Below are positions 62,040 to 62,797 of a DNA stretch of 64,000 bases, in pieces. Position numbers and translations under genes: made by a program. Position 1 is the stretch's first letter. Every line of letters begins with the position of its first letter. A model generated the notes under the pieces. It searched no databases. It saw nothing but the letters and a program-made list of their open reading frames with translations, and was not told where the DNA came from. Location of the stretch: the NCBI RefSeq assembly GCF_056746865.1, contig NZ_CM163382.1. One strand, written 5' to 3'.

Positions 62040-62748
62040 TAATAAATATCCTCCGGCATAGCCGGAGGTTTTTCAAATGCGCCTATAAGGCTCTCTTACC
62101 AGCCGCGCCCTAACAGGCGCACACGATCTGACATTTGCATCCAACTTCGTTACTTACGGCCCGTAAACGGGCTGCCCGGATAGGGAATCGATAACTGCTC
62201 TCCCATTTTATCCTCTTCAAGCTGGTGCTTTATGTAATCCTGTATCTTCGCCGTGTTCTTACCCACTGTATCGACGTAGTACCCTCTGCACCAGAACTCC
62301 CTGTTCCTGTATTTGAATTTCAAATCACCAAACTGCTCGTAAAGCATCAGACTGCTTTTCCCTTTCAGATATCCCATAAACCCGGATACGCTCATTTTAG
62401 GCGGGATCTCCACAAGCATATGGATATGATCTGCACAGCATTCAGCTTCCAGAATCCGTACGCTTTTCCACTCACACAGCTTTCTCAAAATACTGCCTAT
62501 TGCTCTACGCTTCTCTCTGTAGAACACCTGTCTTCGGTATTTTGGCGCAAAAACTATGTGATATTTACAGTTCCATCGGGTGTGCGCTAAGCTCTTTTCG
62601 TTCCCCATTGGGACCCCCTTTTGATTTCTTGTTTGACACTTGCAGTTGCCAGACCGCAAGGTGTTTTAACAAATCAAAAGGGGTTTTAATAACTGGCTCA
62701 AAGCTGAAAGCTTTCCGGAACCCCCAGCCTAGCTGGGGGTTTTCTGTG
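62040..62748 (-). mobile_element. IS200-type insertion sequence (boundaries approximate)
   Basis: encodes IS200-family TnpA; subterminal hairpins at 62050-62068 and 62719-62741; total size about 0.7 kb as expected for IS200. Confidence 0.7.
62150..62608 (-). CDS. tnpA: IS200/IS605-family HUH tyrosine transposase TnpA
   Basis: 152 aa from MGNEKSLAHTRWNCKYHIVFAPKYRR with HIHMLVEIPP (HUH) motif; near-identical to IS200 TnpA as remembered. Confidence 0.9.
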   Translation of the reverse strand: MGNEKSLAHTRWNCKYHIVFAPKYRRQVFYREKRRAIGSILRKLCEWKSVRILEAECCADHIHMLVEIPPKMSVSGFMGYLKGKSSLMLYEQFGDLKFKYRNREFWCRGYYVDTVGKNTAKIQDYIKHQLEEDKMGEQLSIPYPGSPFTGRK

Positions 62749-62749
62749 C

Positions 62750-62780
62750 ACAAAAAAGGGCCGCCGGTCGGCAGCCCTTT
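62750..62780 (-). terminator. rho-independent terminator of glmS
   Basis: minus strand GGGCTGCCGACCGGCGGCCC followed by TTTTTTG, 20 bp after glmS stop. Confidence 0.55.
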
Positions 62781-62797
62781 TCTATCAACGAGAGATA

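Follow-up and report, generated by a model that had tools for sequence, protein, structure and literature searches.

An IS200-type element lies between a fimbrial operon and glmS, against the glmS terminator, in a 64,000-nucleotide stretch of DNA (NCBI RefSeq assembly GCF_056746865.1, contig NZ_CM163382.1; the whole stretch is called the window here). The region downstream of glmS is also the attachment site of Tn7, attTn7. Our analysis indicates that positions 62041-62751 very probably hold an intact, recently acquired copy of IS200C (IS200/IS605 family, IS200 group), whose position on the glmS side follows from terminator targeting and is unrelated to attTn7.

Extent, anatomy and distribution of the element

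The ends of the element were fixed by comparison with E. coli strain 118UI, in which the site is empty. On the minus strand, 118UI reads ...GGCGGCCCTTTTTT followed directly by ATAAGTGATATC; in the window the same two sequences are separated by a unit that begins GTGCACAG and ends GGAGGATATTTATT. In short form, ...GGCCCTTTTTT joined to ATAAGTG in the empty site becomes ...GGCCCTTTTTT, then GTGCAC...TTTATT, then ATAAGTG in the window, and no target-site duplication is seen between the two. Taken with the list of open reading frames, this comparison defines a complete IS200C of 711 bp with one ORF only. Its features are as follows.

62041 to 62751, minus strand: IS200C, whole, 5'-GTGCACAG...GGAGGATATTTATT-3', without target duplication (empty and occupied sites compared, strain 118UI)
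62150 to 62608, minus strand: tnpA, 152-aa Y1 HUH transposase (PF01797, RefSeq WP_000526135.1)
62719 to 62741, minus strand: left-end (LE) subterminal hairpin, element nt 11-33, a perfect 10-bp inverted repeat (fold)
62615 to 62683, minus strand: Shine-Dalgarno-sequestering 5'UTR stem-loop, element nt 69-137 (fold; within the STnc490 match)
62618 to 62741, minus strand: match to Rfam RF01405 (STnc490, IS200 left-end RNA module), model positions 1-124 of 124
62050 to 62068, minus strand: right-end (RE) subterminal hairpin CCTCCGGCTATGCCGGAGG, 9 nt from the element end at 62041 and followed by ATAT and TTATT

The right end ...TTTATT is confirmed by tandem copies of IS1541 in Yersinia pestis, in which ...GGAGGATATTTATT is joined straight to GTGCCC.... 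Comparison of the two ends revealed no terminal inverted repeats, GTGCAC... and ...TTTATT being unrelated as repeats. The identical 711-bp unit is present at other E. coli loci, and megablast shows the copies elsewhere to be 99-100% identical in DNA, some of them 100%; no second copy was found within the window. An earlier note on this DNA had bounded the element at 62040-62797. The left bound was within 1 bp of the actual one; the right bound took in 46 bp of host DNA, comprising the glmS terminator and the bases between it and the stop codon, and the true end is 62751. The hairpin at 62754-62781 should accordingly be annotated as host sequence, the glmS terminator of the lpf-O113 island, and not as part of the IS.

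Two other readings were considered and rejected. A first alignment of four copies, all with flanks starting AT, suggested an end at 62039 with a trailing AT; this was ruled out by the 118UI empty site, by copies with flanks AC, TA and GC, and by the RE-to-LE tandem junctions. Megablast matches from the glyS and rplS loci ran on into the glmS terminator, as if the IS had carried along flanking DNA. This idea was ruled out as well, the alignment being a chance likeness between different terminators, each with a GC stem and a T-run.

The product of tnpA, the sole gene of the element (tnpB is absent), matches Pfam PF01797 (Y1_Tnp, 'Transposase IS200 like') with an E value of 3.8e-38 over profile positions 2-121 of 121, so the identification of a 152-aa IS200-family TnpA from the letters alone was correct. 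The HUH motif is H61-I62-H63, and the catalytic Y125 and Q129 (Y-x3-Q) are in register with 2ec2 and 2f5g; the protein also aligns to PDB entries 2a6m/2vhg (IS608 TnpA) and 2xm3 (ISDra2 TnpA). RefSeq names the identical protein, WP_000526135.1, 'IS200/IS605-like element IS200C family transposase', both here and at other loci.

Flanking subterminal hairpins had likewise been noted, and both are present, at 62719-62741 and 62050-62068. The first corresponds to the bidirectional terminator of IS200, published as nt 12-34, which blocks incoming transcription (Ellis et al. 2015, PMC4513863); the Shine-Dalgarno-sequestering stem was published as nt 69-138 in the same work. The STnc490 match reaches 146.4 bits (gathering score 56; E 1.3e-31). 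Weak Rfam matches to PsrR1, BjrC1505 and a second STnc490 at the RE (E 0.13-0.26) were dismissed as generic hairpins. We note that the STnc490 model matches the tnpA-sense strand (62618-62741, minus strand), and that STnc490/art200 has been described as antisense to the tnpA 5'UTR (Ellis et al. 2015, PMC4513863). Either the seed alignment in Rfam is sense-oriented, or the model represents an RNA derived from the 5'UTR.

Three complete E. coli genomes, CFSAN061770, EC31 and EF5-18-41, match the 1121 bases around the element with 100% identity, and the gene order in CFSAN061770 is pstSCAB-phoU, lpfD/C/B/A-O113, tnpA (IS200C), glmS-glmU-atp. The element occupies the glmS-lpfA site in only 3 of 5426 complete E. 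coli genomes. The earlier note had proposed comparison with the empty site in other E. coli; besides the ends given by 118UI, a synthetic empty-site query found the lpfA-glmS interval uninterrupted in 1898 of the 5426. With three occupied and 1898 empty sites, and copies elsewhere that are 99.9-100% identical, the insertion appears recent and confined to one lineage. The copy can serve at most to mark the lineage of the three genomes in which it is found. Of the 5426 genomes, 3097 have IS200C matches, at a median of 2 and a maximum of 35 places, and the window-identical genome has six places with IS200C similarity. The low copy number that had been expected is only roughly right.

That the glmS-side copy is a decayed, immobile remnant is very unlikely. 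IS200 is notoriously inactive (PMC4513863) and frameshifts occur in some E. coli copies, such as the one on the hypT side, but the element described here is full length with both ends intact, its tnpA reads as an intact gene with the catalytic residues in place, and other genomes have copies 100% identical to it. The three occupied genomes against 1898 empty ones also indicate recent movement. Of the two doubts attached to the element at the outset, an unconfirmed TnpA homology and truncation, neither holds, since the protein proved homologous and the element is of full length.

As a separate observation, the hypT-side copy is common to the unrelated strains FDAARGOS_1260 and OkiPb01707 and is apparently older. 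Its tnpA is frameshifted and its LE hairpin carries a C-to-T change (AACTCCCAGC); a hairpin and T7 still precede it.

The glmS terminator, the lpf-O113 island and attTn7

The host features that bear on the insertion are listed below.

62798 to 64000, minus strand: 3' part of glmS, which runs off the window (annotation; SIS domains; stop codon 62798-62800)
62754 to 62781, minus strand: hairpin of the intrinsic glmS terminator, brought by the lpf-O113 island (inverted repeat; fold)
62752 to 62757, minus strand: TTTTTT, the terminator tail and the target that abuts the LE (empty site CCCTTTTTT followed by ATAAGTG)
61207 to 61779, minus strand: lpfA-O113, long polar fimbria major subunit gene (Pfam Fimbrial PF00419; RefSeq annotation)
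62773 to 62778, no strand assigned: expected Tn7 insertion point, approximate and unoccupied, inside the terminator hairpin (deduced from the glmS stop codon and the distance in PMC2918618)

The terminator has arms at 62754-62766 and 62769-62781, and folds at -27.7 kcal/mol (z -5.4). The hairpin reported earlier at 62758-62777 is real and constitutes the G/C-rich core of these arms, with one G-T pair. An automated terminator scan missed this terminator, which direct folding shows clearly. It is the same in the 118UI empty site and differs from the K-12 terminator. The IS is inserted on the glmS-sense strand and starts at 62751, 46 nt past the glmS stop, at the first base past the T-tract, with 0 nt between the end of the IS and the T-tract. 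The LE hairpin had been placed less than 10 bp from the terminator hairpin; the stems are actually 12-16 nt apart.

Because the stem and the six-T tail are unchanged, glmS termination should be unaffected, and the LE hairpin may add a second block to read-through from glmS. On the other side, the 261 bp 5' of lpfA (61780-62040) are untouched by the IS; lpfA would retain an intact upstream region, yet one that lies 711 bp farther from glmS.

As had been described, the element lies between a fimbrial operon, which annotation identifies as lpf-O113, and glmS, with no Tn7 genes. The lpf-O113 island spans 56658-62795 of the window (5427 bp not counting the IS) and did not simply insert; it replaces 206 bp of the sequence between glmS and pstS in K-12, among them the K-12 glmS terminator (GCCCTGCGTAAGCGGGGCATTTTT). 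Divergence from K-12 starts 2 nt past the glmS stop codon, and the island brings a different glmS terminator. A third, related terminator is found in the same position relative to glmS with lpf2 of O157:H7. Farther along, window positions 40001-56000 have a G+C content of 0.43, against 0.51-0.54 in the first 40 kb, and a large 'hypothetical protein' gene lies just past phoU in the matching genome; this stretch, upstream of the pst operon, may also have been acquired.

Tn7 inserts ~20 bp downstream of the glmS stop, ~25 bp from the site in the end of glmS that TnsD binds, and needs no particular sequence at the insertion point (Mitra et al. 2010, PMC2918618). The insertion point of IS200C, at 46 nt past the stop, does not match this distance. 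In the annotation of the window-identical genome no Tn7 genes are found between pstS and glmS, the only genes there being tnpA of IS200C and lpfABCD-O113. The last 60 nt of glmS (window 62796-62855), which carry the TnsD-binding region, are left untouched by the IS and are 98.3% identical to those of a K-12-like strain. With the glmS end so well conserved and no Tn7 present, attTn7 is unoccupied and probably functional, and judged by its sequence it is likely still usable in the window's strain.

These data bear directly on the proposal that the IS is present because the region downstream of glmS is attTn7 or a general integration hot spot, or because the IS is a Tn7-associated remnant. The locus does adjoin glmS, and the glmS-pstS interval also houses the lpf-O113 island, but neither tns genes nor Tn7 ends occur between pstS and glmS, the IS starts about 21-26 bp beyond the Tn7 insertion point, and the glmS-side copy is confined to the 3 of 5426 genomes mentioned above. 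Furthermore, IS200C also follows unrelated terminators (glyS, rplS, guaA, pgm and others), and its Y1 HUH enzyme is unrelated to TnsABCD. We give this proposal almost no weight and consider it refuted for practical purposes; the IS is mechanistically unlinked to attTn7. The attTn7 framing of the earlier note explains nothing here, the IS lying beyond the Tn7 insertion point and clear of the glmS end that TnsD binds. An occupied interval downstream of glmS should not be taken as evidence of Tn7 activity.

Terminator-like hairpins at IS200-group insertion sites

All nine E. coli IS200C sites that were read (glmS, glyS, rplS, yehE, guaA, pgm, potE, ccmH side and hypT side) lie directly after a GC-rich hairpin and T-run, and tnpA reads in the same sense as the strand bearing the T-tract. 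At six of the nine (glmS, glyS, rplS, yehE, guaA and pgm) the hairpin is directly 3' of a gene co-directional with tnpA, and potE is likewise co-directional with tnpA and adjoins the hairpin in the potE/pgm case. The ccmH-side and hypT-side hairpins have no adjoining co-directional gene and may or may not be the terminator of a gene. The convergent pgm/potE terminator carries IS200C in opposite orientations in strains FY10 and LCP17S3_I1, and in each case the IS directly follows the T-tract of the strand used.

A scan for the LE hairpin in one genome per species gave 120 loci, of which 54 LEs had an adjacent tnpA and a readable flank; these and four E. coli sites yielded 55 unique flanks, mostly from two genomes (Y. 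pestis and Vibrio ruber) and all from elements with the exact LE hairpin pattern. The flanks come from Y. pestis (IS1541), Vibrio, Brenneria, Edwardsiella, Tatumella, several Firmicutes and other MAGs. The last 5 nt before the junction are TTTTT in 29 of the 55, TTATT in 9 and TTGTT in 5, with close variants besides; nearly all of the flanks have a T-rich pentamer at this point. The last 40 nt fold with a mean of -17.1 kcal/mol, compared with -6.9 kcal/mol for 40-mers drawn at random from those loci. In 48 of the 55 unique flanks, a hairpin with 7 or more paired bases stops 3-10 nt short of the junction; such a hairpin occurs at 5.7% of comparable T-tract 3' ends in the same loci and at 13% in ORF-free DNA (binomial p 2e-35 against the 13% intergenic background). 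An earlier threshold of at least 4 of 5 bp was dropped in favor of this one, since ~50% of background T-tract ends passed it. By the stricter measure, 7 of the 55 flanks are without a clear hairpin, and insertions inside genes are known, for example in inv of Y. pestis. The terminator preference is therefore not absolute.

Even so, the adjacency of the IS to the glmS terminator is neither chance nor Tn7-related; the element is beside glmS because IS200-group elements habitually insert directly 3' of terminator-like hairpins with a T-tract. Odaert et al. (1998) reportedly found that many IS1541 insertions lie at terminator-like stem-loops and suggested that these are hot spots. More recently, terminator-like sequences were described immediately upstream of ISs, most strongly for IS200/IS605 (2025 preprint, 10.1101/2025.07.22.666184). 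No explicit statement of the IS200/IS1541 target site was found in the literature searched. The terminator association is thus known in outline, and our survey adds a base-level rule (a junction at the T-tract's 3' edge, TTNTT, a single orientation) and taxonomic breadth.

By analogy with IS608 and ISDra2, IS200C would move as a single-stranded circle ('peel and paste') after excision of the top strand, and the circle would integrate into the lagging-strand template, 3' of a short target read by bases beside the LE hairpin. The target for the IS200 group would be a T-rich pentamer (TTNTT) right after a hairpin, in effect an intrinsic terminator in DNA form, and it would resemble the right end of the element itself (a hairpin and ATATTTATT, that is, hairpin, ATAT, TTATT). 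Candidate guides for the T-rich cleavage sites, suggested by the same analogy, are the A-rich tracts 5' of the hairpins, CAGAAAA at the LE and TTTGAAAAA at the RE. The plus strand of the window has a negative GC skew throughout, so the G-rich minus strand, in whose sense glmS, tnpA and the T-tract all run, has the sequence of the lagging-strand template; its orientation is consistent with the lagging-strand-template model of IS608. At three loci of Y. pestis NCTC5923 (L103, L104 and L106), head-to-tail IS1541 dimers are found in which ...CCTCCGGCTATGCCGGAGGATATTTATT is joined straight to GTGCCCAGAA, as if the element's own right end had served as the insertion target.

With some reserve, we lean toward the view that IS200-group transposases pick structure as well as sequence, taking TTNTT only directly after a hairpin on the lagging-strand template, a configuration that mimics their own right end. 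The alternative is that the IS recognizes a short T-rich sequence alone, and that terminator adjacency arises from purifying selection, with harmless insertions persisting and others being lost. For IS608 and ISDra2 a target of 4-5 nt is enough, the T-tract is the feature common to all flanks, and 7 of the 55 sites are without a strong hairpin. Selection against insertions in promoter regions could also inflate the hairpin contrast. We nevertheless consider selection on its own a possible but rather unlikely explanation. Hairpins of at least 7 bp stand at 87% of the IS sites but at only 13% of the T-tract ends in intergenic DNA, every junction falls on the 3' edge of the tract with the orientation constant, and the RE-to-LE tandems, which are not obviously favored by selection, fit a target made of a hairpin and TTATT. 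The fixed position of the junction, the fixed orientation and the RE-to-LE dimers favor targeting over the survival of harmless insertions, and such survival could still account for part of the terminator association.

If structural targeting is true, intrinsic terminators would be a genome-wide 'safe-haven' class of attachment sites for the whole IS group, and this would explain both low mutagenicity and tandem dimers. The idea itself has been raised before, and the precise structural-target rule and its mechanism are not demonstrated in the literature surveyed. The pattern, also suggested before, that in many taxa IS200-group elements sit exactly at a terminator T-tract's 3' edge amounts to a quantifiable rule that could be used to predict insertion sites.

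Comparison with known systems

IS200C is a catalogued element that is already known, and its behavior is typical of its family. Relative to IS200C/IS200 of E. coli and Salmonella, the window element has the identical transposase (WP_000526135.1), a full-length STnc490 match, the LE terminator hairpin at nt 11-33 and the Shine-Dalgarno-sequestering stem at nt 69-137, and in both, inverted repeats and target duplication are absent. The element is 711 bp long, and 707 bp is given for Salmonella IS200. Nothing of substance differs; what is rare (3/5426) is only the place of insertion, at the glmS terminator of an lpf-O113 background.

IS1541 of Y. pestis and Y. pseudotuberculosis has a TnpA ~94% identical to that of IS200C and shares the LE hairpin, and in strain NCTC5923 there are 26 loci with a hairpin and T-rich tail immediately 5' of the LE. 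It differs in that its LE begins GTGCCC instead of GTGCAC, its copy number is much higher, and tandem dimers occur.

IS608 (Helicobacter pylori) and ISDra2 (Deinococcus radiodurans) resemble IS200C in the fold and catalytic motifs of TnpA, in their subterminal hairpins, in insertion without duplication 3' of a short target that abuts the LE, and in a strand orientation that fits the lagging-strand template model. They carry tnpB, whereas IS200C does not. Their targets are TTAC or TTGAT, in contrast to the T-rich pentamer after a hairpin used by IS200C, and to our knowledge a requirement for a hairpin in the target has not been described for either.

Like IS200C, Tn7 ends up downstream of glmS without harm to the gene, but the two arrive there by different means. 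Tn7 relies on TnsABC and TnsD, and IS200C on a Y1 HUH transposase; Tn7 is placed by TnsD bound inside glmS and generates a 5-bp duplication, whereas IS200C is placed by the terminator and generates none.
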